Shown: piece by piece, positions 4,933-59,367 of the stretch | How positions within the stretch are numbered: the first letter of the stretch is position 1 | Layout: each line of letters begins with the position of its first letter | DNA from: an uncultured Candidatus Saccharibacteria bacterium | GTDB lineage: Bacteria; Patescibacteriota; UBA1384; DTJR01 | Assembly: GCA_964487045.1 (NCBI GenBank) | Contig: CAZAOT010000003.1 | Location: 72,983 to 136,982 of the forward strand | Direction of reading: 5' to 3' | Length of the DNA: 64,000 nt | The notes under the pieces: generated by a model | The model's database searches: none | What the model saw: only the letters and a program-made list of their open reading frames with translations | What the model was told of the DNA's origin: nothing | Program-made: the position numbers and the translations under genes

Positions 4933-6298
4933 TGTTCTCCTTTGATTCGCCCGAAAATTCGATCGATTCAGAATTCTTGGGGATATCTATTTCAATATTC
5001 ATCGTTTCTTTAATTTTGGCCATTAAAGCCTCTTTAGCTTCAGGCTCGCCGTGAACTAGAACGATTTTCTTAACATTTTTAATCTGCGAGACCCACTCGA
5101 CAAGTTTTGGTTGGTCAGCATGCGCGGAGTATGATTGTATCGGGATGATTTTTGCTTTGGAGAAAATTTCACTGCCTCTTATTTTAACTTCCTTATCTCC
5201 GTCAAGCAATCTTCGCCCAAGAGTGCCTTTTACCTGATAACCGACGATCAAAAGCGTTGTATTTTCCTTTGGCAAAAATGCTTTTTCGTGCCATTGAATT
5301 CTACCGCCATTCGACATTCCTGAGCCAGCAATGATGATTTTGGTCGATTCGTCCTTATCTAACTTCATTGAATCTTCGCTTTCTTCAATCATCTTTAGAC
5401 CTTTAAACTCGAAGAAGTCGTCGCCTGATTTTAAAAGGGCCGTAGCTTCGGCATTATAATACTGAGGATATTTAGCGTAAACTTCAGTCGCCTTAATCGC
5501 CAGCGGACTATCAAGATAAACAGGTATAAATGGAATGCTTCCGCCTTCAACTAGGCCGTTTAGTTCATATAGGATCTCTTGAGTTCTTTCCATTGCAAAT
5601 GATGGCATTAGAATAGTTCCATTTTCGCTAATCGAGTCTTTGATAATCTTCGTGAGCTGCTCTTTACGTTTTTCCATCGGTTCATGTTCTCGATCGCCAT
5701 AGGTCGATTCCATAATTACTAAGTCTGCTGATTCAATAAATTCAGTTTTCTTAAGCAGGGGAACTGGAGGATTGCCGAGATCACCCGAAAAAATAATTGT
5801 TTTTCCTTCTGCCTGGATTTTGACAATTGCTGATCCAAGAATATGACCCGCATCATAAAATTCGACTTCCACGCCTTCAATAGGTGAGAATTTCTCGTGA
5901 TAATTTTTTTCTTCAATTAAGGCAACTGTTTTAGCGACATCATCTAGATCATATAATGGTTGTTTATTAACGTACTCGGCTTCATTTTCCATTAAGTGGC
6001 ATGAGTCTTCGAGGAAAATTTTGGCAAATTCTTGAGTTGGCCCAGTAGCATAAATTTTTCCGCCAAATCCCATTTTTACCAGGTGTGGTGTTCGACCAAT
6101 GTGGTCAATGTGAGAGTGGGTCATGATCATCGCACCGACGTCTGCTGGGTTATAGGGGAACTCCTGCCAGTTTAAGACTGTTTCATCGTCCCCACCTTGA
6201 AACAGACCGCAGTCGATAATCAGTTTGCCAGCGCTAGTTTCAAGTAGATAATTTGATCCTGTCACACCTTCGGTAGCTCCACAGAATGTAATTTTCAT
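4922..6298 (-). CDS. MBL-fold beta-CASP ribonuclease-like hydrolase
   Basis: HSHIDHIG metallo-beta-lactamase motif, and a length and C-terminal region consistent with a beta-CASP RNA-metabolising enzyme. Confidence 0.8.
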   Translation of the reverse strand: MKITFCGATEGVTGSNYLLETSAGKLIIDCGLFQGGDDETVLNWQEFPYNPADVGAMIMTHSHIDHIGRTPHLVKMGFGGKIYATGPTQEFAKIFLEDSCHLMENEAEYVNKQPLYDLDDVAKTVALIEEKNYHEKFSPIEGVEVEFYDAGHILGSAIVKIQAEGKTIIFSGDLGNPPVPLLKKTEFIESADLVIMESTYGDREHEPMEKRKEQLTKIIKDSISENGTILMPSFAMERTQEILYELNGLVEGGSIPFIPVYLDSPLAIKATEVYAKYPQYYNAEATALLKSGDDFFEFKGLKMIEESEDSMKLDKDESTKIIIAGSGMSNGGRIQWHEKAFLPKENTTLLIVGYQVKGTLGRRLLDGDKEVKIRGSEIFSKAKIIPIQSYSAHADQPKLVEWVSQIKNVKKIVLVHGEPEAKEALMAKIKETMNIEIDIPKNSESIEFSGESKENNEV

Positions 6299-6990
6299 TC
6301 GTTGCTCCCTGCTTTATCTTTTTCTTCTTCCGTCTCAATCCCTATGATCTTGAGCGCCGAGCTTGTTCCAATTCGAGTGGCGCCTGCTTCAATCATACCC
6401 TTAGCCTCTTCGAATGTATGGATTCCGCCCGATGCTTTGACCTTTACCTCGTCCCCCACAGAAGCACGCATCGTCTTAATATCATCGATGGTCGATGGTC
6501 TTGGGCCGTAGCCAGTCGATGATTTCACAAATGCTGCTCCTGCTTTCTCGGCTCTCTTGCATGCTTCGGTTAGCTCTTCTTCTGTTAGAAAGCCAACTTC
6601 CATAATAACTTTGAGGCCAATTGGCTGAATCGCTGTTGCGATTTCCCTGATTTCTTCTTCGATAAAATCAAATTTCTTCTCTTTAATTGCTCCAATGTTA
6701 ACAACCATATCAATCTCGGTTGCGCCATCTTCTACAGCGAGCTTGGCTTCGGCTACTTTAATTTCGGTTTTTGAAATACCAAATGGAAAGCCAATTACAC
6801 TAATTACTTCAATATCGGCTCCTTCGAGATATTCTTTTGCGGCTGCTACGCGGTAGGTAGTGACGCAAACACTATGAAAACCATATTCCTTAGCTTCAGA
6901 GCAAAGCTTTTTGATGTCTTCATTTGTAGCATCTGCTTTGACACAAGTGTGGTCAATATAAGAAACGATATTTTCTTTTGTAATATTCAT
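6295..6990 (-). CDS. deoC: deoxyribose-phosphate aldolase
   Basis: YIDHTCVK, VIGFPFG, EIDMVVNIG and FVKSSTGYG are DeoC class I aldolase motifs. Confidence 0.9.
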   Translation of the reverse strand: MNITKENIVSYIDHTCVKADATNEDIKKLCSEAKEYGFHSVCVTTYRVAAAKEYLEGADIEVISVIGFPFGISKTEIKVAEAKLAVEDGATEIDMVVNIGAIKEKKFDFIEEEIREIATAIQPIGLKVIMEVGFLTEEELTEACKRAEKAGAAFVKSSTGYGPRPSTIDDIKTMRASVGDEVKVKASGGIHTFEEAKGMIEAGATRIGTSSALKIIGIETEEEKDKAGSNE

Positions 6991-7130
6991 TAAATCTCCT
7001 CAAGTTTAGGTCCTTCGATTCCTGCCCCTCTACCTGACGCACTGCAATAACAGGACGGAGTCAGTTTTGCAGTAAGGAATGGTGTGGGGTGGTCAATATA
7101 TTTTCTAATTGATTGTTGATCTAGTTCCAT
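6990..7130 (-). CDS. upstream mini-ORF (46 codons): DeoC-like N-terminus (..YIDH) fused to conserved tail PTPFLTAKLTPSCYCSASGRGA
   Basis: ATG at 7130 lies 4 nt after AAGGAGGG. The ORF is in frame through the 68-nt element. Its TAA overlaps the deoC ATG as TAATG at 6992-6988. Confidence 0.45.
   Translation of the reverse strand: MELDQQSIRKYIDHPTPFLTAKLTPSCYCSASGRGAGIEGPKLEEI
7021..7088 (-). repeat. 68-nt conserved hairpin element, copy 1 (inverted relative to copy at 13990-14057)
   Basis: CCCACACCATTCCTTACTGCAAAACTGACTCCGTCCTGTTATTGCAGTGCGTCAGGTAGAGGGGCAGG. I counted 59 of 66 positions identical to copy 2. The stem is CTGCAAAAC/GTTATTGCAG. Confidence 0.85.
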
Positions 7131-7185: not shown

Positions 7186-7226
7186 GAAAAGAGAAAGGGC
7201 CGCCGTGTCGAATGACATGGCGGCCC
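7186..7226 (-). terminator. intrinsic terminator of cassette 3
   Basis: Arms GGGCCGCC (7197-7204) and GGCGGCCC (7219-7226), extendable to about 13 bp. TTTCTCTTTT follows on the minus strand. Confidence 0.8.
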
Positions 7227-7245
7227 TGGTTGTGCAGTGAGAGCT

Positions 7246-7968
7246 CTAGCTTGGTAGCTGAAGCGGAGTTAGATACTCAGCAGCTCTGGGAGTCGCCTTG
7301 ATGTCAGCTTTGTATCCATAGGTTCTCGCTGTCTCCAGATCCCAAGCGTAACTACCAGCGGGCTGAGTGGGCCTTGCGATGATTCGCGGGTCAAACCCTA
7401 TCTCATTTCCGGTCGTTGCCCAGTCGATATATGGGTTGATGTCAACTTCATACCGGAAAGGATCGGTCCGATCGCCGGCAGCAAGTGTAGCCAGCTCATC
7501 TAGACGATCGTCTGGCCAGTAAACCTTGCTTGTTGTCTGGCGGTTTTCGATCTCGACCCATTCATCGCCAACTGAGATGACTTCCGCTTCGTCGAAATGG
7601 ACAAATGCCTCTTGCGGAATCTCAATCTCCGGAAACATCAACTCCTCGGGACAGAGCTGTTCGAAGAAGGTCGTGCCAAGTAGCGTTATGCTGTCATCCC
7701 CACGTGGGATGACAAAGTAGGGCTGGTTTTCGTATGCGCCCCACTTCTGGCCAGGCCAGAGATAGCCAAGCGCCCAATCACCGTCTTTTTGCTGATAGAC
7801 GAGCCATGCCGCGCCGCTTCGAACTTCCCACGCTACTGAGCAAAAGTTGTGAAAAGCTGGTTCGGCTGGCCGCTCCGGTGATATCCTTAGCAGGAAAGAG
7901 CAGCACATGTCGGCTTTGTACATGAACGAGTCGATGATCCTTGGCCTAAACTGAAGCCGGTTTGGCAT
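7246..7968 (-). CDS. hypothetical protein, GC-rich cassette 3
   Basis: ATG at 7968 lies 6 nt after AAAGGAGG. The track start at 7992 is less well placed. 240 aa, no motif recognised. Confidence 0.6.
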   Translation of the reverse strand: MPNRLQFRPRIIDSFMYKADMCCSFLLRISPERPAEPAFHNFCSVAWEVRSGAAWLVYQQKDGDWALGYLWPGQKWGAYENQPYFVIPRGDDSITLLGTTFFEQLCPEELMFPEIEIPQEAFVHFDEAEVISVGDEWVEIENRQTTSKVYWPDDRLDELATLAAGDRTDPFRYEVDINPYIDWATTGNEIGFDPRIIARPTQPAGSYAWDLETARTYGYKADIKATPRAAEYLTPLQLPS

Positions 7969-8028
7969 GTCTGCCTCCTTTTGTTCTTTCAAATGCTACA
8001 GGGTTGCATAAAGCTTGCCACTTTGCAG

Positions 8029-8581: not shown

Positions 8582-8611
8582 ATTTATCTAAGATTAACAT
8601 TTTGTTTCATA

Positions 8612-8656
8612 AATAAAAAAGAAAGCCCGGGCGCTCCACTGGGGAGGGCTCGGGCT
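8612..8656 (-). terminator. intrinsic terminator of cassette 4
   Basis: Arms AGCCCGGGC (8624-8632) and GCTCGGGCT (8648-8656). TTTCTTTTTT follows on the minus strand. Confidence 0.8.
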
Positions 8657-8678
8657 TGATGAGGCGTGGTAGCGGGTG

Positions 8679-8939
8679 CTACCGGAGGTTTCGGCGCTGA
8701 TCCGCGGTGGGGTTCTTGCCCACGTTTGAGTTGCCGACCGTCCGCTTTCGCACGATCCAGTCGGCAAGGAGCACGAAGGCGCTGATCGTGGCAGTGATGG
8801 CAGTCATGTAGAGCGTCGGCTTGCTCTTAAACATGATGCCAAAAGCGATGAAAAGCGGGGTAGTGGGGAAGAGGAAGAATTTGAACAATCTCCTCTTTCC
8901 CTTGGTGAGAAAAGACTTCGGCTTGAGTGACTTCATCAT
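8679..8939 (-). CDS. small membrane protein (2 predicted TM), GC-rich cassette 4
   Basis: 86 aa with two hydrophobic stretches and basic termini. GC-rich, last gene before the terminator. Confidence 0.55.
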   Translation of the reverse strand: MMKSLKPKSFLTKGKRRLFKFFLFPTTPLFIAFGIMFKSKPTLYMTAITATISAFVLLADWIVRKRTVGNSNVGKNPTADQRRNLR

Positions 8940-8953
8940 AGTCCTCCCTGTTT

Positions 8954-9523
8954 CTAGCCCTTGCAGTCAGGGCATACGATCGTGATTTGGTTTCCTACGC
9001 CGGACCCTGTGTCCGGAATGAAGGGATCTCCACAGCGGAAGCAGTATCTGGGTTCACCTGCAACCAGCTTCTTGTCTGCATCCGAGCAGACCTTGCACTT
9101 GCGGGGATTCCAGAGGTTGCGTCTGCTTGGGGTATAAGCACCGCAATGTGGGCAGTAGAAGTGTGTCATTAGGCGTTGCCCAGTGCTCTTGGCGACAGGC
9201 GGGATCCAGCGCTTGATCGTGAAGCGCTGCTCCAAACCAGGGTGCAACTCTACCGTAGCGCCGTGGCCGCTGGTAGCTCGGACAGCAAAGCCGTTTTCCA
9301 GAAAGAGGTTCGCTATCTGCGCGAGTTCGCCCAGAGGTTCCTGGTTGAGGGCAGTTGCCAACTCAACATAGCATAGTTCTTCTGGAATGCTAGCGGCAGG
9401 CTGGTTGATTTCGACAGCGATACGAGCTTGCTGCTCCTCGGGTAGATTTGCCAATAAGGCAGTAATCCGCCCCTTGAGCGCGTCTGCTTCTTGGCTTGTA
9501 CTGGTGACTCGGGCGCGGATCAT
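8954..9523 (-). CDS. double zinc-ribbon protein, GC-rich cassette 4
   Basis: The C-terminal 70 aa carry four CxxC pairs (CPHC, CKVC, CFRC, CPDC). The N-terminal about 110 aa are unassigned. SD AGGGAG is upstream. Confidence 0.65.
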   Translation of the reverse strand: MIRARVTSTSQEADALKGRITALLANLPEEQQARIAVEINQPAASIPEELCYVELATALNQEPLGELAQIANLFLENGFAVRATSGHGATVELHPGLEQRFTIKRWIPPVAKSTGQRLMTHFYCPHCGAYTPSRRNLWNPRKCKVCSDADKKLVAGEPRYCFRCGDPFIPDTGSGVGNQITIVCPDCKG

Positions 9524-9571
9524 GGTTGCTCCCTATCCTTTTTGGTATGTAAAGGTTCGAACGAACGTTTG

Positions 9572-9600
9572 ATTATATTTGAATTACGTCCGAATGTCAA
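9572..9600 (-). promoter_or_regulatory. perfect consensus promoter TTGACA-17-TATAAT
   Basis: Minus-strand TTGACA is at 9600-9595 and TATAAT at 9577-9572, with a 17-nt spacer, upstream of the zinc-ribbon gene. Confidence 0.7.
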
Positions 9601-9613
9601 TAATTAAGTACAA

Positions 9614-9634
9614 GGGACGCCGGAGGGGCGTCCC
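9614..9634 (-). terminator. hairpin after 9638..9919 gene
   Basis: Arms GGGACGCC and GGCGTCCC. The downstream T tract is weak. Confidence 0.5.
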
Positions 9635-9637
9635 TGA

Positions 9638-9919
9638 TCAGAGCCAGCAGTCGTGGCGAGTGATGATATTTCCGTCATCGCCAATACTGCCAACTTTGCA
9701 TGTTCTTCCGAGACGGCGAAAGCCTCTCATTGCAGGAGCAAATGCGGCTGCACCTAACAATATATAGAAGCTGGTACCAGATATGCCCGAGATGGTAGCG
9801 AAAAGCCAGAACATCTTGGGGTAGCAGATCGCTACAGTCGTTGAAGTGTACGCAACCCCTTTGAGAAGGGGAGCGAGAACGATCGGTCGTGAAACTAATG
9901 ACAGAATTCGACTGATCAT
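9638..9919 (-). CDS. small membrane protein, GC-rich cassette 4
   Basis: 93 aa with hydrophobic helices. SD GGAAGGAG lies 6 nt before the ATG. Confidence 0.55.
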   Translation of the reverse strand: MISRILSLVSRPIVLAPLLKGVAYTSTTVAICYPKMFWLFATISGISGTSFYILLGAAAFAPAMRGFRRLGRTCKVGSIGDDGNIITRHDCWL

Positions 9920-10187: not shown

Positions 10188-10341
10188 TTATTTGGAGTCA
10201 CTTAAGAGCGCGAAAGGCGTAGGCCGAGCTAAGGTCGAGAAAAAAAATCAGCAAAAATTGTCCAACATCTTGATTTTTTGAAAAATAAGTGAATAATGTA
10301 TTATTAATTTGGAATACGTACATTGAAAGAGGTAGGTAGCG

Positions 10342-10761
10342 ATGAGTAAGCGCATCCTGGTGGTTGATGATGAGCGCCACATCGTCCGTCTGGTTAAGCT
10401 CAACCTGGAACGCGCCGGCGGCTATGACGTCCTGACAGCGTACGACGGGATCGAGGCTCTGGGCAAAGTCAAGACCGAGAGCCCCGATATGGTGGTGCTC
10501 GACATCATGATGCCCCGGATGGACGGTTACGAAGTACTGCGTAACTTGCAAGCAGATCCCAGCTGCCAGAACATACCCGTGATCATGCTGACCGGCAAGG
10601 ACCAGGACGCCGACTTCTTCAAGGCCTGGGCCAGTGGGTTGAGGGCATATATGACAAAGCCCTTTGATCCCCAAGAATTGCTGACATTCATCCAACGGAT
10701 CTTCGAGGCCGATCAAATCGGGTATGGGGATGATACAGATGATTCGTGCTTTGAAGTGTAA
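10342..10761 (+). CDS. stand-alone response-regulator receiver (CheY-like), GC-rich cassette 5
   Basis: The acidic pocket and phospho-acceptor pattern ILVVDDE...DMVVLDIMMPRMDG...MLTGK...KPF is present. No output domain and no kinase nearby. Confidence 0.9.
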   Translation: MSKRILVVDDERHIVRLVKLNLERAGGYDVLTAYDGIEALGKVKTESPDMVVLDIMMPRMDGYEVLRNLQADPSCQNIPVIMLTGKDQDADFFKAWASGLRAYMTKPFDPQELLTFIQRIFEADQIGYGDDTDDSCFEV

Positions 10762-10785
10762 TGTAGCTTGCCCCTCTCGATTCCC

Positions 10786-10827
10786 ATGCCCGCATCTGCT
10801 CCGGAGGCTTTGCGGGCATTCTTTTTC
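10786..10827 (+). terminator. intrinsic terminator of cassette 5
   Basis: ATGCCCGCA/TGCGGGCAT stem followed by TCTTTTTC. Confidence 0.85.
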
Positions 10828-11003
10828 TAAATAGTTAACACCCATTTTATAAAGTCCAAACACAAATTTTTCAAAATTAGTTCAATCTGAGCCACAGGTG
10901 AAATTTCGCGTTCCACCCGCGAAATCCCCAGAAATAAAATTGCCCCGTTAGGGGCTATTTTAATTATTTAGAGATGTTTCCAGTCGTGTGATATATTAGT
11001 CCT

Positions 11004-12975: not shown

Positions 12976-13773
12976 TTATCTTACAGCGAAATAGTAACCC
13001 TTGTAGGAAAAATAATTGCCTCGAGGGCTTTGGGCCGGCTTGGATAGGTCTAGTTTTCCGTAAATTTTAAATTTATTGGCAATGGCAAAATGATATTCGG
13101 TAAGTGAATCAACCGCTGAACCATTTTCAATGAAAGTTCCTCCAGTTAGGCCGAATAAAAACAATGCTTTGATTCCACTCTCAATGCAGATGTTGTCAGT
13201 GCTGATAAATTTATAGTCTTCGTCTAATAACATTTTATAAGTCTTTGAGTCAGTCTTTTGCGGGCCAAGTTTGCCGGGTCTGTCCCAGTAGGTAATTAAT
13301 TTTGTTGCATCTTCAACCTGCATTTTTATTTCTGGAGATTTTCCGAGATACTCAATTTTATCTTCAACAATTTTTATTCCATATTTGATCGCCGGATAAT
13401 AACAGAAAGTGTAAATAGGTTTTTTCTTGTCGTGGATAGTGACAACGACTGAAAACATTTTCTTTCCTTCGGCATACAACTTAGTTCCATCTATTGGGTC
13501 TAGAGTCAAAACATATTTAGACGTTTTTGCAAATAAATGGGCGCTTGGAGTTTCTTCCTCGCCAATAAGCTCACACTCCTTTAGATCGCTTTGAATTAGG
13601 CGACTGAGAATGAACTCCTGCACCGCAAGATCGGCGGAGGTAACTATATCAACTTCGCTAAAACCGGTATTATGTTTCTGATTGGAAGTAAAACTGCTAC
13701 GCATCTTTAATGCTAATTCTCCTGCCTTGATAAAGTCTTGTTCAAATTTTTGAACTTCTTCTATTATATTCAT
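12976..13773 (-). CDS. inositol monophosphatase/FBPase-family phosphatase
   Basis: GEEE and LDPIDGTKLY metal-binding motifs. Confidence 0.75.
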   Translation of the reverse strand: MNIIEEVQKFEQDFIKAGELALKMRSSFTSNQKHNTGFSEVDIVTSADLAVQEFILSRLIQSDLKECELIGEEETPSAHLFAKTSKYVLTLDPIDGTKLYAEGKKMFSVVVTIHDKKKPIYTFCYYPAIKYGIKIVEDKIEYLGKSPEIKMQVEDATKLITYWDRPGKLGPQKTDSKTYKMLLDEDYKFISTDNICIESGIKALFLFGLTGGTFIENGSAVDSLTEYHFAIANKFKIYGKLDLSKPAQSPRGNYFSYKGYYFAVR

Positions 13774-13816
13774 AAGCCAATCATATCTAATCTAGATTGA
13801 GAGTAAAGATTGAAGA

Positions 13817-13845
13817 TTGACTAATCGGCGAAAATAGTGTATATT
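13817..13845 (+). promoter_or_regulatory. promoter TTGACT-17-TATATT for the typA leader
   Basis: TTGACT at 13817-13822 and TATATT at 13840-13845. A leader of about 108 nt with two hairpins follows. Confidence 0.6.
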
Positions 13846-13953
13846 CTATTGGTTGTAAACAGCCAAAGAAGGCTTTTTGATCTATTTCGCATAGCGAAGA
13901 GATCAACCCTTCCATAGCTCTTTGAGCGAAGGAGGGTATTCTTTTTAAAAATT

Positions 13954-14070
13954 ATGATTCGAAACGTTGCGATTATTGCTCATGTAGACCCCACACCGCT
14001 CCTTACTGCAAAACGGATTCCATCCTGTTATTGCAGTGCGTCAGGTCGAGGGGCGAGAGATGACAAATAA
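13954..14070 (+). CDS. upstream mini-ORF (38 codons): TypA-like N-terminus (MIRNVAIIAHVD) fused to conserved tail PTPLLTAKRIPSCYCSASGRGA
   Basis: In frame through the 68-nt element, with TAA at 14068-14070. The nearest GGAGG is 17 nt upstream, so translation is uncertain. Confidence 0.35.
   Translation: MIRNVAIIAHVDPTPLLTAKRIPSCYCSASGRGARDDK
13990..14057 (+). repeat. 68-nt conserved hairpin element, copy 2
   Basis: CCCACACCGCTCCTTACTGCAAAACGGATTCCATCCTGTTATTGCAGTGCGTCAGGTCGAGGGGCGAG. The stem is 14006-14014 paired with 14027-14036. Confidence 0.85.
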
Positions 14071-14081
14071 AATTTTGCCAA

Positions 14082-15902
14082 ATGGATATGAATAAAATTA
14101 GAAATGTAGCTATCATAGCTCATGTAGACCACGGAAAGACCACGCTTGTCGATGGTCTATTAAAGCAGTCCCATACTTTTCGTGACAACCAAGCCGAGAT
14201 GAATCAGACGCTCATTATGGACTCAAACGATCAGGAGAGAGAGCGCGGAATTACAATTTTGGCTAAAAATACCGCAGTAAATTACAAAGATACTAAAATT
14301 AATATTATTGATACTCCTGGCCACGCCGATTTCGGTGGGGAGGTGGAGCGAACGCTCAATATGGCAGATGGCGCGATCCTTGTAGTTGATGCTCAAGAAG
14401 GACCAATGCCTCAAACAAAGTTTGTTTTGAAAAAAGCGCTTGATTTAGGGCTAAAGATTATTGTAGTAATAAACAAAATTGATAAGAAAAATGCGCAAGT
14501 TGAAAGTGTTATAGAAAGAACTTCAGATCTATTTCTTGATTTAGCTTCTGATGAGTCACAGCTCGAATTTCCAATTTTGTTTTCAATTGCCAAGCAAGGT
14601 AAGGCTTGGAGCGAAATGCCACAGAATTTTGAAGAAGACGGTGATCTTTCGAAAATTTTTGAAGCAATTTTGCAGTATATTCCTGCGCCAAAAGTCGAAG
14701 AGGGTCCATTTCAGATGCTTGTATCGGCCTTGGATTGGGATAGCTATCAGGGAAAATACGCAATCGGAAAAATTTCAAGAGGAAAAGCGATGGCTGGTCT
14801 TCAGGTGAGTTTGGTAAATGAAGATGGCGTAAAAGAAAATACTCGAATTGATAAGATTTTTGTTAGCAGCGGTTTGGTCAAACAAGAAGTTAAGGAAGCC
14901 GTGTGTGGCGACATTGTTTCAATTACCGGAATTAAGAACGCTGGAATTGGCGAAACAATCGCTGATCAGACGAGTCCCGAGGCTCTGCCGGGCATAAGTA
15001 TAGAAGAGCCGACCCTTTCGATGGCAATTTCAGCCAATACTTCGCCATTTGCTGGCAAGGAAGGTAAGTTTGTTACTGGCCGACAAATTTTAGACAGAAT
15101 TAAAAAAGAACTAGAGACAAACGTTTCGCTAAAATTTAAACAGGGCGAGGAAGGCGAATATATTCTCTCTGGCCGAGGCGAACTTCACTTGTCCGTCTTT
15201 ATTGAAACTCTTCGTAGAGAAGGTTTTGAGCTTCAAGTTGGTAAGCCACAGGTTATTATCAAAGAGATTGATGGCATTAAGAGCGAACCACTTGAAGAAT
15301 TAACGGTTGATGTCGAAGATCAGTATGTAAATAACGTGATCGCCGAGGTTATAAGACGAAAAGGTGTTTTGCATCATCAGAACCCACTTCTTGATGGCAC
15401 GACCAGGCTTATTTTTGAAATTACAACGCGTGGAATGCTCGGTCTTAGAAGCCAACTAATGACTCTTTCGCGCGGAACAGCTGTCGCTAACTCGATATTT
15501 TTAAGATTTGAAAAAGTTATGAGCGAAATTCCAAGACTTCGAAACGGAGTTTTGATCGCTTCTGAAGATGGCAAGGCTGTAACTTATGGGCTTGATATAG
15601 CTCAGGGCCGAGGAATCACATTTATCGAGCCACAACAGCAAGTCTATAAAGGTATGATTATCGGGCTTAATTCAAAAGAGTCTGATATCGAAATCAATGT
15701 AGCCAAAGAGAAGCATTTGACCAATATTCGAGCTGCTTCTTCTGATATGACCACGGTTTTGACCCCAGCAACAATTTTGTCACTTGAACAATGTATTGAC
15801 TTTTTGGAAGATGACGAGCTTCTTGAGGTTACTCCAACGTCACTTCGACTTCGAAAGAAGATACTCGATCCAACGCAGCGAAATAGAGCTAGAATTCGCT
15901 AA
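14082..15902 (+). CDS. typA: translational GTPase TypA/BipA
   Basis: G1 motif AHVDHGKTT, then DTPGHADF and NKID. Length and C-terminal domains are typical of BipA. The start could also be the ATG at 14088. Confidence 0.95.
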   Translation: MDMNKIRNVAIIAHVDHGKTTLVDGLLKQSHTFRDNQAEMNQTLIMDSNDQERERGITILAKNTAVNYKDTKINIIDTPGHADFGGEVERTLNMADGAILVVDAQEGPMPQTKFVLKKALDLGLKIIVVINKIDKKNAQVESVIERTSDLFLDLASDESQLEFPILFSIAKQGKAWSEMPQNFEEDGDLSKIFEAILQYIPAPKVEEGPFQMLVSALDWDSYQGKYAIGKISRGKAMAGLQVSLVNEDGVKENTRIDKIFVSSGLVKQEVKEAVCGDIVSITGIKNAGIGETIADQTSPEALPGISIEEPTLSMAISANTSPFAGKEGKFVTGRQILDRIKKELETNVSLKFKQGEEGEYILSGRGELHLSVFIETLRREGFELQVGKPQVIIKEIDGIKSEPLEELTVDVEDQYVNNVIAEVIRRKGVLHHQNPLLDGTTRLIFEITTRGMLGLRSQLMTLSRGTAVANSIFLRFEKVMSEIPRLRNGVLIASEDGKAVTYGLDIAQGRGITFIEPQQQVYKGMIIGLNSKESDIEINVAKEKHLTNIRAASSDMTTVLTPATILSLEQCIDFLEDDELLEVTPTSLRLRKKILDPTQRNRARIR

Positions 15903-15988: not shown

Positions 15989-16219
15989 ATGCCGACGTCA
16001 ATCGAGACTAAGGCGAGGAATATCGATAGACACTTGCCGGAGATGATGTGCTTGGCGCACTCGTCCGGCTTGCCTTCGATCATCCTTCCGTTTGGCACTT
16101 TTGACCAGCCAACTCAGGAGAAGCTGCGTGACCTAGTGGCCGAGTACGCCAAAGGCAAGGGCCACAAGACGCGCAAGTTCTTGCATCAGACGCGCCTCTA
16201 TCTCGAGGTGAGTATCTAA
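15989..16219 (+). CDS. hypothetical protein (76 aa), GC-rich cassette 6 gene 1
   Basis: ATG at 15989 after AAAGGAAG. GC-rich. No family recognised. Confidence 0.55.
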   Translation: MPTSIETKARNIDRHLPEMMCLAHSSGLPSIILPFGTFDQPTQEKLRDLVAEYAKGKGHKTRKFLHQTRLYLEVSI

Positions 16220-16226
16220 GGAGGGC

Positions 16227-16448
16227 ATGATGCCCAGGATAACCAGAACTGATTCGGCCGGCAATGCTTTGGAGATCGACGGCGCCAAGGTCGTCGCCGG
16301 GCCTTACGGCTCTCGGGCTGAGGTTGTTGTTGCGCACGCAGAGGTTGGGATGGAGTTGGCTTGTCGTTCGGGACGAATTTCAAGCGGGGTCTTTATTGAG
16401 CTCAATGGAAAGCACTATGCTGTCGAGGTCGCGACACAATTGATGTAA
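16227..16448 (+). CDS. hypothetical protein (73 aa), cassette 6 gene 2
   Basis: AAGGAGGG lies 2 nt before the ATG. There is a 7-nt gap to gene 1. Confidence 0.55.
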   Translation: MMPRITRTDSAGNALEIDGAKVVAGPYGSRAEVVVAHAEVGMELACRSGRISSGVFIELNGKHYAVEVATQLM

Positions 16449-16473
16449 GTTGGCCAAAATAGGGAGGCAGATT

Positions 16474-17739
16474 GTGGACAAAGAAGCGATCCAAGGCGCC
16501 CGCAGGGCGCTTCTGCTCAAGAAGCTTGAAGTAGCATCAACGACCAAGGAATGCACCCTTGCGTTCCAGGGTCTCAAGCTCTACAGAGATGACCTTTCGA
16601 TTGTCGCCACTCGTAAGAGAGCGATTGAGCTCGCAGCTTCGGCAGGCGACATGGATGAGGTTCGTCGCTTTCCGTATGATGTGGGTATCTTCTCTCTGGG
16701 AGATCAGGCTTCCGAGTTCTTTCGTAAGGCCATGCTGCTTTGCAGGCCTGAAGAAGTATACGACTTCACAGGCAACTTCGGCTATTACGCCGATGAAGTT
16801 GTTAGCTTCCTTGTCGAGGGGCTTACCGATCCGCTCAAGCTGACTCGACTAGCGATGCGACTCGGAGCGGAGGGTCTGCTTGAGCGCGGACAGGAAGTGA
16901 TCGCTCGGGCTGCTGAACTGGCTGCAAGCTGGGAAGTGTGCGGTTATGTCGGGACGATACACTATGCGCCGCTTCCGACAGGGTTTCTGACCATGGCCGT
17001 CCTTCTCGCTGAGGGGCAGAAGGGTTACGATGCTCCTCTCGAAGTTTGTGGGTGGATGAAGGCTTCGCTCAACGACCCGCTCGAATTCAGACAAGCAGCG
17101 GCTGTTGCCGAGCTGCTTGATGCGCCAAACAAGCGTATCAGGCGGGTAGCCGGAGAGCGGATCAGGCAGGCTTACCAGGAGAAACTGAGCGGCCAAGATG
17201 GCGACTTCTATATCCAAAGCGCCTGGAACGTCGTTTGCGATGCCCGCGATGCGCTTCCGGAACTGGCTGCAGAGCTGACCGCTGATCTCGTGGTGCGTCT
17301 GACAGATGCGGTACCAGCCTGTCAGGACTTTTCGGAGGCAAAGTCGCATCTTGAAGTCGCTTCCGCAATGGAGGACTTCGGGATCGATGGAGTCTACTGG
17401 CCGGCAGCCATGCGTGCGATGGAGCTGGCAGAGGGCTGTGATGATATCCTGGCGTTGGTGCGCCTTGGCATTCATGTCCAGGAGCTCACCGAGGCTGTCC
17501 TGGTAATGGCTGCAACCGAAGATGATATCATTGCAGTCATACAGCGCAACCCGAACTTCTCTGGTGAGTGGACGTTGCCTCTTTGCGAGCGGATCTTCGA
17601 CTATCGGCGCCAGAGGGCGCAGACGATCGAGGACTTCATGATTCTGCATCACCTGACCAAGGACCCGGTCAAACTGGCCGAGGTCGAGGATCGCATCCAG
17701 GAGCTCATCGCTCCATACCATACCGAGCCTGAGGAGTAA
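16474..17739 (+). CDS. hypothetical all-alpha protein (about 421 aa), cassette 6 gene 3
   Basis: GTG at 16474 lies 6 nt after GGGAGG and is in frame with the track start at 16450. The sequence is acidic and Leu/Ala-rich. A terminator follows. Confidence 0.65.
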   Translation: MDKEAIQGARRALLLKKLEVASTTKECTLAFQGLKLYRDDLSIVATRKRAIELAASAGDMDEVRRFPYDVGIFSLGDQASEFFRKAMLLCRPEEVYDFTGNFGYYADEVVSFLVEGLTDPLKLTRLAMRLGAEGLLERGQEVIARAAELAASWEVCGYVGTIHYAPLPTGFLTMAVLLAEGQKGYDAPLEVCGWMKASLNDPLEFRQAAAVAELLDAPNKRIRRVAGERIRQAYQEKLSGQDGDFYIQSAWNVVCDARDALPELAAELTADLVVRLTDAVPACQDFSEAKSHLEVASAMEDFGIDGVYWPAAMRAMELAEGCDDILALVRLGIHVQELTEAVLVMAATEDDIIAVIQRNPNFSGEWTLPLCERIFDYRRQRAQTIEDFMILHHLTKDPVKLAEVEDRIQELIAPYHTEPEE

Positions 17740-17763
17740 CTTCCCCTGGTTCATGGCTCTACA

Positions 17764-17800
17764 ACGGCTCCCGGCCTAGTGCTTGGGAGCCGTTTTCTTT
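17764..17800 (+). terminator. intrinsic terminator of cassette 6
   Basis: ACGGCTCCC/GGGAGCCGT stem followed by TTTTCTTT. Confidence 0.85.
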
Positions 17801-17852
17801 ACCCTATTACCTTGACAAATGATTCTGATCAGCTAGAATCATACTCGTCTAT

Positions 17853-18962
17853 ATGGATAATATTCTCGAGCCTCCCAGTACGCATAGGCGAGGCCTAAAA
17901 ATAAATAGAATACGACAAAGCGCTCCAAGCGCTTTTGCCGGTTTTGGATTAAAAATCCTCAATAATTTGGAAAACTTGCGTCTATCGATCAGGAAACTGA
18001 TCTTTTTTATTAGGGGTCATATTATTTCGTTTAAAGAATTTGCTAAATTGCACGGTGTTAACCGCTCGCTTGCTTATAAATTTGCGATTGTAGCGGCCAT
18101 TGCACTTCTTCCAGTTCTCTCTAAAGTCACAGCTGAAGATCAGGCTTATGAAGATGTAATTCACTATAGTCAGACAATTGACCCGGTTGAGTCTGCTCGA
18201 TTCGCAGTTTATTTTTCCGGCTATACTCCTGGGCTTTATATTGATGCCGACCAAGTTGCCCTAAATGCAGTTACTAATAACGAGTCATATACTCTGGAGC
18301 AGCAGTTAGCGGTGAATCAAGGTAAGGATTACGCGGTTGAGGGTCGTCAGGAACCGACATATGTTCTAAAATCAGGCGAAACGATTGCTGACGTTGCTTC
18401 TAAGTTTGACTTACATGTCGGAACTCTAGTTGATGCCAACGGACTTGATCCGGTGAATTTGAAGAATGTGAGACCAGGTACAACCTTGATGATTCCTTCA
18501 TCGGATACCAATACTTCAAATGACTGGCTGATTGCAATCAACAAAGATGAAGCTGAGAAGAAGCAAAAAGCGGCTGAGGAAGCAGCCAAAAAGAAAGCGG
18601 AACAGGCCAAGAAGGTAGCTTCAGCGAGCAACAATGTAACAGCTACTGGAACGGTTGCCGGAGCAACGACAAGAAGGCAGGTCAGTTCTGAAGTGACCGT
18701 TATCGGAACTTCTTATTCACAGTGTGTTCCTTGGGCGAGAGAAAATTCCGGAATTGCAATTCAAGGATATGCGGGCAATATTTCTGCTACTCAATCAGAG
18801 CCGAGGGTTGGGGGAGTAGCTCTTGATCGATTTTATGGCCATGCCTCGGTGGTAGTAGAGGTTGGCTCTGATTATATAGTTGTACATGAAGCCAACTGGA
18901 TCCATGGCAAGATTACCAAAAGAAAAGTTTCTAAAGATGCTATCCGCGGATACGTGTATTAG
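17853..18962 (+). CDS. LysM + CHAP-domain peptidoglycan hydrolase, membrane anchored
   Basis: LysM segment YVLKSGETIADVASKFDLHVGTLVDANG...LMIP. C-terminal CHAP-like segment QCVPWARE...GHASVV...HEANW. TTGACA-16-TAGAAT lies upstream at 17811-17838. Confidence 0.75.
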   Translation: MDNILEPPSTHRRGLKINRIRQSAPSAFAGFGLKILNNLENLRLSIRKLIFFIRGHIISFKEFAKLHGVNRSLAYKFAIVAAIALLPVLSKVTAEDQAYEDVIHYSQTIDPVESARFAVYFSGYTPGLYIDADQVALNAVTNNESYTLEQQLAVNQGKDYAVEGRQEPTYVLKSGETIADVASKFDLHVGTLVDANGLDPVNLKNVRPGTTLMIPSSDTNTSNDWLIAINKDEAEKKQKAAEEAAKKKAEQAKKVASASNNVTATGTVAGATTRRQVSSEVTVIGTSYSQCVPWARENSGIAIQGYAGNISATQSEPRVGGVALDRFYGHASVVVEVGSDYIVVHEANWIHGKITKRKVSKDAIRGYVY

Positions 18963-56067: not shown

Positions 56068-59000
56068 ATTAGAAATAATTTTCTAGTTATTGTATTAGGT
56101 CTATCTTTTGTGGCATTTACTTCTTGTATTTCTGTTTCTCAAGCCGCAGCCGATGAAGATATAACAATTTCTTCAAATACTACCTGGGTTGCTGGGACAT
56201 ATACTTATAGAGATATCACTGTCACCAACAATGCAACATTAACTCTAGGTGGAACTTATACAACCGATACCAACGGTACGGGTGTAATTATTAATGCTAG
56301 GAGCGTTACTGTAAATTCAGGCTCTACAATCTCCGCTACCGGTCAGGGTTATGCTGCTAATGCTGGAATTGGTAAGGGAACGAATGTTAGTGCTTATGGC
56401 GGCGGCGGCAGCCACGCTAACAATGGTGGAAATCATGCTATTGGCTCTGGTGGTGGTACTACTTTATACGGCTCAACAACTGCTCCGACAACACTCGGCT
56501 CTGGCGGCGGAAATGGAGGAGCAGGTGGAGGGGCGATTCAGCTTAATTTATCTGGAAATTTATCTCTTGCTGGGAATATATACGCAAAAGGAAATAATGG
56601 TGGCACTAATACTGGTTCAGGTGCTGGCGGTTCAATTTATATAAGCGCTGTCGATTTATCTGGCGCTGGAAATATTAGTGTTAATGGGGGTAGCTCAGGA
56701 TCAGGTGGCGGCGGCGGTAGCGGCGGAAGAATTATGATTTATCACACAGGAACAAATTCTTTAACTGATGGTAACATTACAGCCGCTGGCGGAACTGGTT
56801 ACGCATCTGGCGGAGTTGGTTCTAAGCTGATCTATAACAAGACAACTAAAGACGTAACAATTGCTTCTGATATTACAATCGATTCGACAATGGGAATTGA
56901 TGAAAATGGAGACCCATCAACAGACGGAATATTTCACTTTAATGATTTAACTATTAATAATAATGCAAACCTATATTCAAAAGCTTATTACACTACTGAC
57001 ACAAACGGAACAGGTATTGAGCTAAGTTTGACTGGCGACTTGAATGTTGCCTCTGGGGCAAAAATTAATGGTATCGGTAAGGGTTATGCCTATCAGGCAG
57101 GGGACGGAAAGCCTACTGGAGTAAGCAATACTTATGGCGGAGGTGGAGCTCACGGGGGTAATGGTGGACGTGGCGATCCTGCTGGAAGCGGCGGAACAAA
57201 ATACGATTCAACCCTTTTTCCTGTAAAACCTGGGAGTGGAGGTTACACTACTCGTGGAGGTGCAGGAGGAAGTGCAGTTAAGATCACGGCAAGTGCGATA
57301 ACGGTAGATGGCTCGATCGACCAATCTGGCGCGGTTGTTGTGGCGAATGCTTCAAATAACGGTGGTGGTGGTGCTGGTGGATCGGTATATGTTGTTGCTG
57401 ACTCGCTTTCTGGTGCTGGTACGATCAAAGCTGATGGGACAAATGGTTATGGATATAGTGGCGGTGGCGGTGGAGGAAGGATTGCGATTTATGCTGACAC
57501 TTCCGGATTTAATACTAACAATATAACTGCAGCCAAGGGTATCAAGGGTGGATCTGGTCTTTCTGCTGATGGAGATGTCGGGACTATCTTTTTATACGAT
57601 ACTGCATCCGGAAATGTTTCAGCTTCAAGCGATGTAACTTTTAATGCGGATCAAGGTGTGAGTCGTGATGGTTCAGCTAGAACTGACGGAGTTTTTTATT
57701 TTAATAATTTGACTGTTACGAATAATGCTACTGTGACAATTGGTGGTTACTATACCGATGACACTAATGGTCGCGGAGTAACTATAAATCTCGATGGAAG
57801 CTTAACGATAGATTCTGGATCAACTGTAACAGCAAGCGGACAGGGATACACGGCTGGAGCTGGTCCGGGCAAGGGTTCGGGAGGTTCTTCTACTTCTGGA
57901 TCAGGTGGTAGCTATGGAGGTGTCGGCGGCCAGTCGTACAACAACAACTTAGCCCCAGCGGTTTACGGTACCACCGAAGCTAATTTTCCTTATAAACTTG
58001 GTTCAAGTGGCGGCGCTGGTGATCAGGTCACGGGCCCTGCAGGCGGAGGGGCGGTGACATTCCGTGTTCTGGGAAATATTGTAAATAACGGAACTATTTC
58101 TGCTGACGGCTCAGTTGCTAAGGCCAGTCCAATTCCGGGTTGGTACACTGGGGGTGGATCTGGAGGAAGCGTCTTTCTTGTTTGTAACACCCTATCTGGC
58201 AGTGGAACGATAACCGCTAAAGGTGGCAATGGTGCAGGAACTGATTATGGATCTGGTGGCGGTGGAGGAGGAAGAATATCAGTTGTTTATTCAACTAGTC
58301 AAAATATCGCACTAGGAAACTTCTCAGCATCAGGCGGCACTGGCGGTGGCGGAGTATCTAACCGAAATGGAGCAGAAGGATCTGTTAACATTACGCAGAA
58401 AGTGTTGCCTGCCGCTGAATTTACTTTAAAAAATCCTAATAATGATTCAACCCAATTCACTAACACAGAGAACGTAGAAATTGTGCCGACTGATGAGACT
58501 GTCGAAAAATATAAGGAAGCCGCGTCAGTAAATGAATTAGTCCCTGCGTTTTACGCCGACGGTTGGGCAAATATCACGGATGGTAAGGATGTTGGAGCTT
58601 CAGAGGGGGCAAAAACTGTTAGAGCATGGTTTAAAGATTCAAATGAATTAATCTCGAGCTCTGTGGGAAGCGCTACAATTACGCTTGATAAAACTCAACC
58701 AGATATTACGATCTCAAATAATAATCAGTCAGTTTCAAATGCTTCAACTACAGTTCAGCTTGATTTATCCGATAATACTTCCGGAATAGATTACCTATTG
58801 ATCAATGGTCAAAGAGTTGAGGTTAGTGCTCTATCCATTGTTTCCAGGGTTCAACCCTCAAGTATAAAAGCCTATGCTGATAATATTACTTACGAGGCAA
58901 CCGTCTCTCTTGCTGAAGGAGAAAATTCAATTCCAATTGTTGTATATGATAAAGCTGGCAATTCTACTCAAACTACATTTATCGCGACAAGGACGACCCC

Positions 59001-59367
59001 AGTTGTCCCTTCGCCTACGCCAACTCCAGTTAACTCCAGCTTGCCTTCTAGCTCGGCTACCTCGACAGCATCTTCATCCGGTGAATCTTCATCAAGCGTA
59101 ACTGCCAGTGGCTCATCTACAGATTCGTCTGAAACCACAGAAGCTGAAGCTGGTGAAGGACTTATGTCATCTTTAGCCGAAAACATACAATCAGCGACAG
59201 AAAAAATTGCTGATGCCCTCAACCCATTTTCAAATAAATCTAGCATTGATGAGTCTGAAAATTCTGGATTGGAAAAATCTCCTTATTCTTCTCTAAAAAT
59301 CATTATTCTCATCATTCTTATGTTAACTGTTATCTTTAGCTACTTTGTCTTGAAGAATAAAAAGTAG
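56068..59367 (+). CDS. giant Gly-rich beta-helix-like surface protein with C-terminal TM anchor; probable ATT start
   Basis: The frame is open from 56059. An ATT at 56068 lies 4 nt after AAGGAGGG and restores the signal peptide (I/M)RNNFLVIVLGLSFVAFTSCISVSQA. The GTG at 56110 (track) would truncate it. Three internal repeats, a Ser/Thr linker and a terminal TM helix are present. Confidence 0.75.
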   Translation: MRNNFLVIVLGLSFVAFTSCISVSQAAADEDITISSNTTWVAGTYTYRDITVTNNATLTLGGTYTTDTNGTGVIINARSVTVNSGSTISATGQGYAANAGIGKGTNVSAYGGGGSHANNGGNHAIGSGGGTTLYGSTTAPTTLGSGGGNGGAGGGAIQLNLSGNLSLAGNIYAKGNNGGTNTGSGAGGSIYISAVDLSGAGNISVNGGSSGSGGGGGSGGRIMIYHTGTNSLTDGNITAAGGTGYASGGVGSKLIYNKTTKDVTIASDITIDSTMGIDENGDPSTDGIFHFNDLTINNNANLYSKAYYTTDTNGTGIELSLTGDLNVASGAKINGIGKGYAYQAGDGKPTGVSNTYGGGGAHGGNGGRGDPAGSGGTKYDSTLFPVKPGSGGYTTRGGAGGSAVKITASAITVDGSIDQSGAVVVANASNNGGGGAGGSVYVVADSLSGAGTIKADGTNGYGYSGGGGGGRIAIYADTSGFNTNNITAAKGIKGGSGLSADGDVGTIFLYDTASGNVSASSDVTFNADQGVSRDGSARTDGVFYFNNLTVTNNATVTIGGYYTDDTNGRGVTINLDGSLTIDSGSTVTASGQGYTAGAGPGKGSGGSSTSGSGGSYGGVGGQSYNNNLAPAVYGTTEANFPYKLGSSGGAGDQVTGPAGGGAVTFRVLGNIVNNGTISADGSVAKASPIPGWYTGGGSGGSVFLVCNTLSGSGTITAKGGNGAGTDYGSGGGGGGRISVVYSTSQNIALGNFSASGGTGGGGVSNRNGAEGSVNITQKVLPAAEFTLKNPNNDSTQFTNTENVEIVPTDETVEKYKEAASVNELVPAFYADGWANITDGKDVGASEGAKTVRAWFKDSNELISSSVGSATITLDKTQPDITISNNNQSVSNASTTVQLDLSDNTSGIDYLLINGQRVEVSALSIVSRVQPSSIKAYADNITYEATVSLAEGENSIPIVVYDKAGNSTQTTFIATRTTPVVPSPTPTPVNSSLPSSSATSTASSSGESSSSVTASGSSTDSSETTEAEAGEGLMSSLAENIQSATEKIADALNPFSNKSSIDESENSGLEKSPYSSLKIIILIILMLTVIFSYFVLKNKK
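56152..58400 (+). repeat. three tandem coding repeats (about 230-260 codons each) inside the surface protein
   Basis: Units begin near 56152, 56851 and 57611. Each has the order ...NN(A)T(L/V)T..GG.YTTDTNG.GV...SG(S)T(I/V).A.GQGY...G.GKG...GGGG..., ending in runs of GGGG. Confidence 0.75.

Follow-up and report, generated by a model that had tools for sequence, protein, structure and literature searches.

Prophage e14 or phage 21, which occupy the 3′ end of icd, and the islands found in tRNA genes are integrative elements that rebuild the gene into which they insert. The Rickettsia palindromic elements insert in frame and are incorporated into the protein, and they bring neither a replacement for the start codon nor a duplicate of the target's upstream segment. 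Here we describe an interruption at the 5′ end of typA, which encodes a translational GTPase, in a stretch of 64,000 nucleotides (the window) from an uncultured Candidatus Saccharibacteria bacterium (GenBank assembly GCA_964487045.1, contig CAZAOT010000003.1, positions 72,983 to 136,982). At this site the first codons of typA occur twice, on either side of a hairpin that we call E, and the same arrangement recurs within the window in deoC. The feature in typA probably arose when a mobile cassette, small and non-autonomous, inserted there and restored its target. In what follows, A′ denotes the displaced resident 5′ end of a target and A the 5′ end that is carried by the cassette.

The typA and deoC loci of the window

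The interrupted typA locus comprises the following features, given with their positions in the window and their strand.

13817–13845 (plus): promoter-like site TTGACT-17-TATATT, with 10 of 12 consensus matches, presumed to be the resident typA promoter
13954–13990 (plus): A′, the displaced resident typA 5′ end, an ATG and the codons for IRNVAIIAHVD followed by C, with protein-level identity to the N-termini of relatives
13954–14070 (plus): typA leader open reading frame (ORF) of 38 aa, MIRNVAIIAHVD then PTPLLTAKRIPSCYCSASGRGARDDK and a stop, the TAA at 14068–14070
13988–14057 (plus): E hairpin, typA copy, scoring 78.5 bits with the covariance model against 18 bits for the antisense strand
13991–14130 (plus): 140-nt cassette (E, spacer and A), missing at the orthologous sites of relatives
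14082–14130 (plus): A, the cassette-borne typA 5′ end, M[DM]NKIRNVAIIAHVD, in register with the gene body
14082–15902 (plus): typA/bipA translational GTPase ORF of 606 aa, identical to the database protein P0001

The direct repeat formed by 13957–13990 and 14097–14130 has 82% identity at a period of 140 nt, and its score was matched in none of 200 shuffles of the flanks. A reading of this DNA from its sequence alone had described the main traits of the arrangement, and these are borne out: an ORF runs from the ATG at 13954 through the element to the stop at 14068–14070, six of the 11 duplicated codons differ, all six of them synonymously, and the final 13 nt of the two copies (GCTCATGTAGACC) are identical at a spacing of exactly 140 nt (the 13978–13990 region and 14118–14130). 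The typA start, which it had placed at 14082 or 14088, agrees with the 14082–15902 frame, in which the further in-frame ATG at 14088 is present; the TAA of the leader lies 11 nt ahead of the former and 17 nt ahead of the latter. The cassette is positioned directly after ..AC within the G1 motif, between AHVD and HGKTT, its exact ends being ambiguous inside the 13-nt repeat. An A–E junction, as in circles or tandem copies, would read GCTATCATAGCTCATGTAGAC then CCCACACC and would differ from A′–E by the synonymous differences, and an empty-site junction would read ATTATTGCTCATGTAGAC then CACGGAAAG.

The deoC copy, on the minus strand at 7130–6949, has the same layout as typA and again a period of exactly 140 nt.

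7089–7130 (minus): deoC A′, MELDQQSIRKYIDH, the resident 5′ end in its displaced position, adjoining the resident promoter and a syntenic upstream gene
6990–7130 (minus): deoC leader ORF of 46 aa, MELDQQSIRKYIDH followed by PTPFLTAKLTPSCYCSASGRGAGIEGPKLEEI, whose TAA overlaps the deoC ATG (TAATG)
7021–7090 (minus): E hairpin, deoC copy, 75.9 bits with the covariance model
6949–7088 (minus): deoC 140-nt cassette, consisting of E, a spacer with a GAGGAG ribosome-binding site, and A, which is MNITKENIVSYIDH
6295–6990 (minus): deoC (deoxyribose-phosphate aldolase) ORF

Comparison with relatives identifies which of the two 5′ ends is the resident one. The five closest TypA relatives (87–90% identity) are proteins of 602 aa whose N-terminus, MIRNVAIIAHVD, is the same as A′, and in the three relative loci that were fetched (L060–L062) the typA site is empty, running uninterrupted from GTAGAC into CACGGA. 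The deoC site is likewise empty in L063, L064 and L065, the last of these coming from the same assembly as the typA relative L060. L065 and the window deoC share the upstream gene (54% identity over 236 aa) as well as a terminator and promoter, ATTATGTTATAATGCA, and the DeoC N-terminus of L065 is A′-like, with agreement in 10 of 14 residues. Conversely, 13 of the 14 residues of deoC A match P0128, the native N-terminus of another lineage, and the deoC spacer resembles the native 5′ untranslated region (5′UTR) of L064, TTGAGGTTTAGATGAATATTAC. Because the native 5′ ends of relatives match A′, the insertion consists of E, the spacer and A, with A an orthologous 5′ end from elsewhere; A′ is the resident copy and A comes from another lineage. 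The earlier preference for acquisition of a 5′ end from a related lineage over a fresh target-site duplication is therefore supported by the empty sites, the A′-like N-termini of relatives and the deoC comparisons.

Two further observations concern these 5′ ends. A small, conserved hairpin with a T-run (CAGCC-GAAA-GGGGCTTTTTTT) stands directly ahead of the ATG in the typA 5′UTR of L060, L061 and L062, and a similar hairpin, CAGCCAAAGAAGGCTTTTTG, is found in the window at 13862–13881, about 75 nt 5′ of A′; this hairpin with its T-run may be a leader or attenuator element. Among the relatives of the window DeoC (P0123–P0137) there are two N-terminal types, M(D/N)ITKENI..YIDH and M(D/E)LD..SIRKYIDH, whose distribution is patchy relative to overall similarity, as expected if cassette-borne 5′ ends sometimes become fixed.

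The E family and its targets

E forms a family of 56 oriented copies in 46 metagenome or metagenome-assembled genome (MAG) loci. A search with a 23-nt core in a species-representative collection gave two genomes (a Berkelbacteria MAG and an unclassified MAG), a gapped pattern gave 57 metagenome loci, three of them chance coding matches, and a profile search followed by a covariance model added more divergent copies to reach the total. Copies of E are about 70 nt in length and score 32–87 bits with the covariance model in the sense direction, exceeding the 15–27 bits of the antisense direction, so that E has a defined orientation. The structure begins with an outer stem of 6–7 bp, followed by a conserved internal loop, a stem of 10 bp in which an A is bulged, a covarying stem of 4 bp and a loop of 3 nt, and the outer stem gives the termini CCCC(R)CA..UG(Y)GGGG (CCCC..GGGG in the typA copy). 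In the alignment 90.9% of cells are paired and in 17 of 21 pairs both partners have changed; the observed values were never attained in 500 shuffles, and sliding of the partners lowers pairing to 29–43%. The invariance of the long stem in the first alignment was a product of the search pattern, and compensatory changes in this stem are also seen in copies found by the models, without that pattern. A pairing of the internal-loop GTC with the GAC flank is unsupported, GTC being constant whatever the flank.

Whether constraint acts at the level of the peptide or of RNA had been left open by the sequence-only reading, and the family settles it for nucleic-acid structure, since the pairs covary, E is read in two frames, and E occurs also in tRNA genes and promoters. 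Seven genes use one reading frame and three use another, hence it is not the ‘peptide’ that is conserved; nor is this a recognised protein family, since a peptide search with the deoC leader matched only itself. When the E tails of typA and deoC are compared, the four synonymous codons reported earlier stand, but the count of eight nucleotide differences becomes seven in seven codons, three of which are non-synonymous. Similarly, the GACCAC insertion point holds for both window copies but not family-wide, where the only common feature of the left junction is ..AC before CCC. Searches of Rfam with the window, the element region and two loci gave no relevant match at the gathering score or at E-value ≤ 10. 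Two pattern scans of viral contigs gave no match to E, BLAST against phage and plasmid collections yielded nothing beyond a 32-nt chance match within AT-rich sequence, and no description of E was found in the literature searched, stem sequences included as query.

The arrangement seen in typA is repeated in other targets. In the orientation of E the order is A′, E, spacer, A and the rest of the target, with A′ ending exactly at E. The targets and the periods of the repeats are as follows.

typA and deoC: period 140 nt
lepA: IRNFCIVSHID, then E, then IRNFVIIAHIDHGKST; period 140 nt
tsaD: ILALETSCD, then E, then ILALETSCDET; two independent cassettes, with unrelated spacers; period 140 nt (L047/L058) and 143 nt (L051)
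Three NAD-epimerase genes: E at the GxxGxxG motif; period 142 nt (L011), 116 nt (L016) and 104 nt (L041)
uvrA: IFVKGARE, then E, then IFVKGAREHNLK; period 111 nt (L022)
tRNA D-loop: E oriented as the tRNA, three events
tRNA T-loop or variable region: E opposite to the tRNA orientation
tRNA genes overall: period 106–131 nt
−35 box: CTTGAC, then E, hairpin and CTTGAC again, followed by the −10 box; period of promoter-type copies 103–108 nt, with one at 90
DnaA boxes: target of E
Ribosome-binding sites or start codons: target of E

At L042 a series of tRNA 3′ fragments precedes two E copies arranged in tandem. The spacing of 140 nt is conserved at four independent sites but not elsewhere, other protein genes having periods of 104–143 nt. 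Four sites at exactly 140 nt, with differing E subtypes and A lengths, would arise by chance with a probability of about 1e-3 on a rough estimate, and the exact recurrence may reflect a size limit.

The divergence between A′ and A is informative about their history. For the eight codons nearest the junction in ten protein cases, 25 comparisons are identical, 39 synonymous and 10 non-synonymous, and the non-synonymous differences between A′ and A are located in the variable extreme N-terminus. The earlier proposal that both 5′ copies evolved as coding sequence is upheld by this excess of synonymous changes near the junction, and both copies carry the mark of purifying selection. In the tRNA locus L004 there is a compensatory T-stem change between A′ and A. 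The A′ of L047 and that of L058 differ by TCT and AGC serine codons and at other synonymous positions; the TCT/AGC difference is hard to reach neutrally and is as expected from the independent entry of related cassettes into two hosts. The synonymous excess, the L004 T-stem change and the TCT/AGC codons together disfavour a decayed target-site duplication. Identity between A′ and A rises towards the junction, from about 0.65 at a distance to 0.81–0.86 over the final 6 nt, a gradient that is suggestive but confounded with motif conservation.

Several copies and surroundings deserve separate mention. Larger E variants with extra hairpins are present at L001 (2465–2640), L048, L032, L014, L012, L010 and L033, in 5′UTRs such as those of gapA and rpsT; in these larger 5′UTR variants an upstream AAGGAGG-like sequence pairs with a 3′-side CTTCCT, extending the outer stem, and a second GGAG(C)GGAGG lies ahead of the start codon. 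At L022 two divergent E copies about 90 nt apart bracket the uvrA promoter region (6421–6648), and the uvrA copy, being in frame without a stop, could appear in the protein as an N-terminal duplication of 37 codons. E is present two or three times within 5–10 kb at L024 and L044 (one 24-kb contig), L021, L056, L008 and L029. From this density some genomes may carry about a hundred E copies, whereas the window has two in its 64 kb. Patches of 52–60% G+C are seen in the window at 7200–8000, 8600–9800, 10400–10800 and 16000–18000, against about 37–42% for the genome, and the ORFs at 7246–7992, 8954–9523 and 10198–10863 in G+C-rich patches have no Pfam match; the first of them has a syntenic 54%-identical homologue in L065 and is therefore not a recent island of this lineage only. 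In L064 a gene for a 23S-rRNA-intervening-sequence protein (PF05635, at 1523–1891) lies between deoC and an RNase J-like gene and is not there in the window. A 1085-aa ORF at 56110–59367 of the window has glycine-rich internal direct repeats of the GGTGGCGGTGGAGG type, and the GC skew of the window tracks the gene strand and gives no information on replication direction.

Expression, movement and alternative explanations

In the typA region no good promoter-like site was seen other than that at 13817–13845, none lies inside the cassette, and there is no terminator-like site in 13650–14250. The stop of the leader overlaps the new start codon (as ATGA, TAATG or GTGA) or lies within 17 nt of it in nine of the ten protein cases. 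Of the eight protein cases that were measured first, seven have a period of 2 mod 3 and none a period of 0 mod 3; the later uvrA case, with its period of 111, is in frame. Stop codons in the 56 E copies number 65 in the forward frames as against 200 in the reverse frames. The geometry of the leaders together with the paucity of stops in E suggests a translational coupling that neutralises the insertion. Transcription would still begin at the resident promoter 5′ of A′, and ribosomes would initiate on A′, cross the stop-poor hairpin and terminate either a few nucleotides before the new start or overlapping it, after which typA would be translated by termination–reinitiation coupling. To judge from these sequence features, the interrupted target should still work, the cassette supplying the replacement piece.

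The cassette is made up of two parts, the structured hairpin E of about 70 nt and a segment of 35–70 nt that reproduces the sequence just upstream of the insertion point in the target; in typA this second part comprises the spacer, the start codon and the first 12–14 codons, copied from the typA of another lineage. The resident A′ is thereby pushed upstream and the A of the cassette is joined in register to the gene body, insertion probably taking place precisely at the equivalent position of homologous targets. Insertion would probably be performed by a trans-acting recombinase or transposase that recognises the hairpin, perhaps by Campbell-like integration of a small circular or single-stranded intermediate, and the founding step could be the capture of a 3′ flank by an E copy lying immediately upstream of a gene. 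Among 112 flanking ORFs within 3 kb of E copies, no family of integrases, transposases or reverse transcriptases is recurrent, and because no enzyme family recurs there the unit is regarded as non-autonomous. It is conceivable, although we consider it rather doubtful, that these cassettes are mobile DNA of a class not recognised before, which integrates by a mechanism of its own and is in effect programmed by the copy of the target that is carried. In such a class the units, no longer than about 140 nt, would be placed beside ..AC by an enzyme that recognises the hairpin, wherever a site matches the 3′ segment of the cassette.

A number of observations sit uneasily with the insertion of a target-restoring cassette. 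No enzyme, circular junction or excision product was seen, and the cassette model does not account for a period of exactly 140 nt having arisen at four independent sites. At L044, L008 and L055 the flanking repeats measure only 4–10 nt, like ordinary target-site duplications. In L004 the displaced acceptor strand is unpaired with the 5′ strand of the intact tRNA; there the import probably covered the whole tRNA, and a longer donor fragment fits equally. The relatives with empty sites have nucleotide identities of only about 75–80%, at which the right-hand limit of the imported DNA is not mappable, and at this divergence of about 22–25% no recombination breakpoints were discernible along typA and deoC. 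Finally, the single-sequence folding energies of E are unexceptional (z −1.7 to +0.1).

The short repeats would be accommodated if E were an ordinary transposon resembling transposable elements of the miniature inverted-repeat kind (MITEs) that makes a long target-site duplication, the two copies having diverged afterwards. The outer stem provides terminal inverted repeats, copies are many, the short repeats are near-identical (TAAA(C) at L044, CTAACT/CTAATT at L008 and AAATAGATTA at L055), and a duplication made at insertion would restore any target automatically. After such an event, however, the upstream copy would escape selection, yet synonymous changes near the junction outnumber non-synonymous ones by 39 to 10; moreover A′ matches the N-terminus of relatives while A differs in length and 5′UTR, the repeats range from 4 to about 70 nt in contrast to the fixed duplications of transposases, and the compensatory T-stem changes in the L004 fragment point to a different tRNA as its source. 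We consequently regard this explanation as quite unlikely. It is also unlikely, but perhaps a little less so, that E is a common, immobile intergenic or 5′UTR hairpin at which foreign DNA recombines, anchored by homology in the gene body and joined illegitimately at the base of the hairpin. The whole tRNA apparently imported in L004, the lack of an enzyme gene nearby, the AC/C microhomology at junctions and the patchy DeoC N-terminal types among relatives would all fit such recombination. Against this, independent events share the position of the left joint, usually after AC (in two tsaD cassettes, in typA and lepA, and three times in the tRNA D-loop), the stop/start overlap geometry is consistent across cases, and there are tandem and nested arrangements of E; the proposal is weakened because such regularities are not expected from illegitimate joining.

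The remaining explanations do without movement of a cassette. The hairpin and its mini-ORF could be a host cis-regulatory leader, an attenuator or upstream ORF, that evolved in place for typA and deoC, as their 5′ position and likely co-transcription, leader ORFs that run up to the start codon, like those of coupled or attenuated operons, and the larger variants in the gapA and rpsT 5′UTRs, with a displaced ribosome-binding site paired into an extended stem, would allow. This becomes very improbable given that the orthologous sites of the closest relatives are without the element, that tRNA genes, promoters and the origin region harbour it as well, and that the leader duplicates the N-terminus of the gene itself with foreign codon choices. 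Removal or skipping of the 140 nt during expression, either intron-like or as a bypass from GAC to GAC, would make A′ the working N-terminus: deletion of exactly one period of 140 nt would bring A′ in frame with the typA body, the codon preceding the element and that closing A match (GAC/GAC in typA, CAC/CAC in deoC), and A′ retains a perfect motif sequence. Nevertheless, no Rfam ribozyme or intron family was found even at the E-value of 10, the downstream copy comes with a start codon of its own and, in deoC, with a good ribosome-binding site too, no stop codon follows the would-be take-off codon, the codons are mismatched in several cases (GAC against GAT), and E is also present in −35 and DnaA boxes, where removal at the RNA level would be senseless, so that we consider this highly improbable. 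That the duplication is an assembly artefact from strain-variant collapse might be suspected of a window from a metagenome-assembled genome with short repeats, but can be practically dismissed. The deoC copy is identical over 941 of 941 nt in an independent Logan assembly (L066) and its leader ORF is present on five contigs from independent assemblies, which excludes an assembly error, and the layout recurs across dozens of unrelated assemblies and has two instances in this contig, so that the strain-variant collapse and want of further copies contemplated by the sequence-only reading are contradicted.

If insertion of a restoring cassette is the right reading, the reduced genomes of Patescibacteria carry an abundant selfish element in their most conserved essential sequences, where it would be tolerated because it supplies a spare copy of the displaced part and stays translatable. 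This would explain odd short ORFs and apparent gene fragments 5′ of core genes, as well as mosaic N-termini (as in DeoC) and misplaced start-codon calls, and would provide a natural example of translational coupling neutralising an insertion. A separate class of such units, were it to exist, would colonise essential genes, tRNAs and promoters without harm and drive the swapping of 5′ ends between lineages, and an enzyme moving a unit of about 100–140 nt with such positional precision is of possible practical interest.

Comparison with known systems

The cassette shares with target-rebuilding integrative elements a displaced partial copy beside an element-borne copy in register, empty sites in relatives, and copies that differ mostly at synonymous or compensatory positions; as in tRNA-gene islands, repeated integration leaves a trail of tRNA fragments (L042). 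Integrative elements, however, extend over kilobases, possess their own integrase and use one site each, usually at a 3′ end, whereas the cassette has about 90–143 nt and no gene and is found in many conserved motifs, mostly at 5′ ends. Measured against such elements it thus shows target reconstitution and an empty site without an integrase of its own or a kilobase cargo. In form E resembles the Rickettsia palindromic elements, Correia, ERIC and REP/BIME, which are small, non-autonomous, multi-copy imperfect palindromes, and like these it lies inside protein and RNA genes, is poor in stops and can be read by ribosomes. A direct assignment to elements of the Rickettsia type was rejected, since typA and deoC have a period of 140 and leader stops before the gene, and only the uvrA copy (111) is in frame. 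The traits of a MITE are present in so far as E is small, non-coding and multi-copy (56 copies) with terminal inverted repeats, but a MITE with an identical duplication of fixed length does not account for repeats of 4 to about 70 nt with mainly synonymous differences, and no autonomous insertion sequence with E termini was seen in 327 kb of loci.

A short promoterless cassette with an imperfect hairpin also recalls integron cassettes and their attC sites. In E, as in the attC hairpin, two boxes are paired, the spacer between them is unpaired, one base is bulged and the tip varies, and in the outer stem and tip structure is kept more than sequence. The E hairpin differs in lying at the 5′ side of the cargo in the orientation of the gene. 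Its outer boxes, ACCCC(A/G)C.. and ..G(Y)GGGGY, do not conform to the RYYYAAC/GTTRRRY consensus with its AAC/GTT core, and no integron IntI, attI site or cassette array is adjacent, the E copies being dispersed in housekeeping genes and conserved chromosomal motifs. A likeness is likewise seen to the hairpin elements derived from IS200/IS605, the palindrome-associated transposable elements (PATEs), where mobility dependent on a hairpin would fit the strict strand orientation of E, and where insertion directly 3′ of a short motif (..AC) and a bulged base in a stem conserved in sequence have their counterparts. PATEs have a hairpin at each end, with neither a flank duplication nor a copy of the target, whereas E is a single hairpin; an IS200/IS605 origin was rejected on this single hairpin per unit, and on the lack of TnpA (Y1 HUH) or TnpB among the top-listed Pfam families of the flanks.

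Two systems in which segments are copied or skipped were also considered. A diversity-generating retroelement was rejected, as A is the affected base in only three of the six typA differences with one orientation, and in none with the opposite one, and no reverse transcriptase was present in 10 neighbouring ORFs scanned. The matching codons around a gap and a hairpin at its start are reminiscent of the bypass in T4 gene 60 and of the mobile bypass elements of yeast mitochondria, but the gap would be 140 nt, in contrast to about 50 nt in T4 gene 60, the downstream segment has a complete start, and there are non-coding targets too; programmed translational bypass was set aside because, although the codons match, take-off is not followed by a stop and the downstream copy brings an ATG of its own. 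For want of a match to a curated covariance model, self-cleaving and self-splicing RNAs of known type were discarded, as were the other families of Rfam. The cassette combines the logic of a target-rebuilding integrative element with the form of a small palindromic repeat, possibly with a mechanism of mobility that is new.

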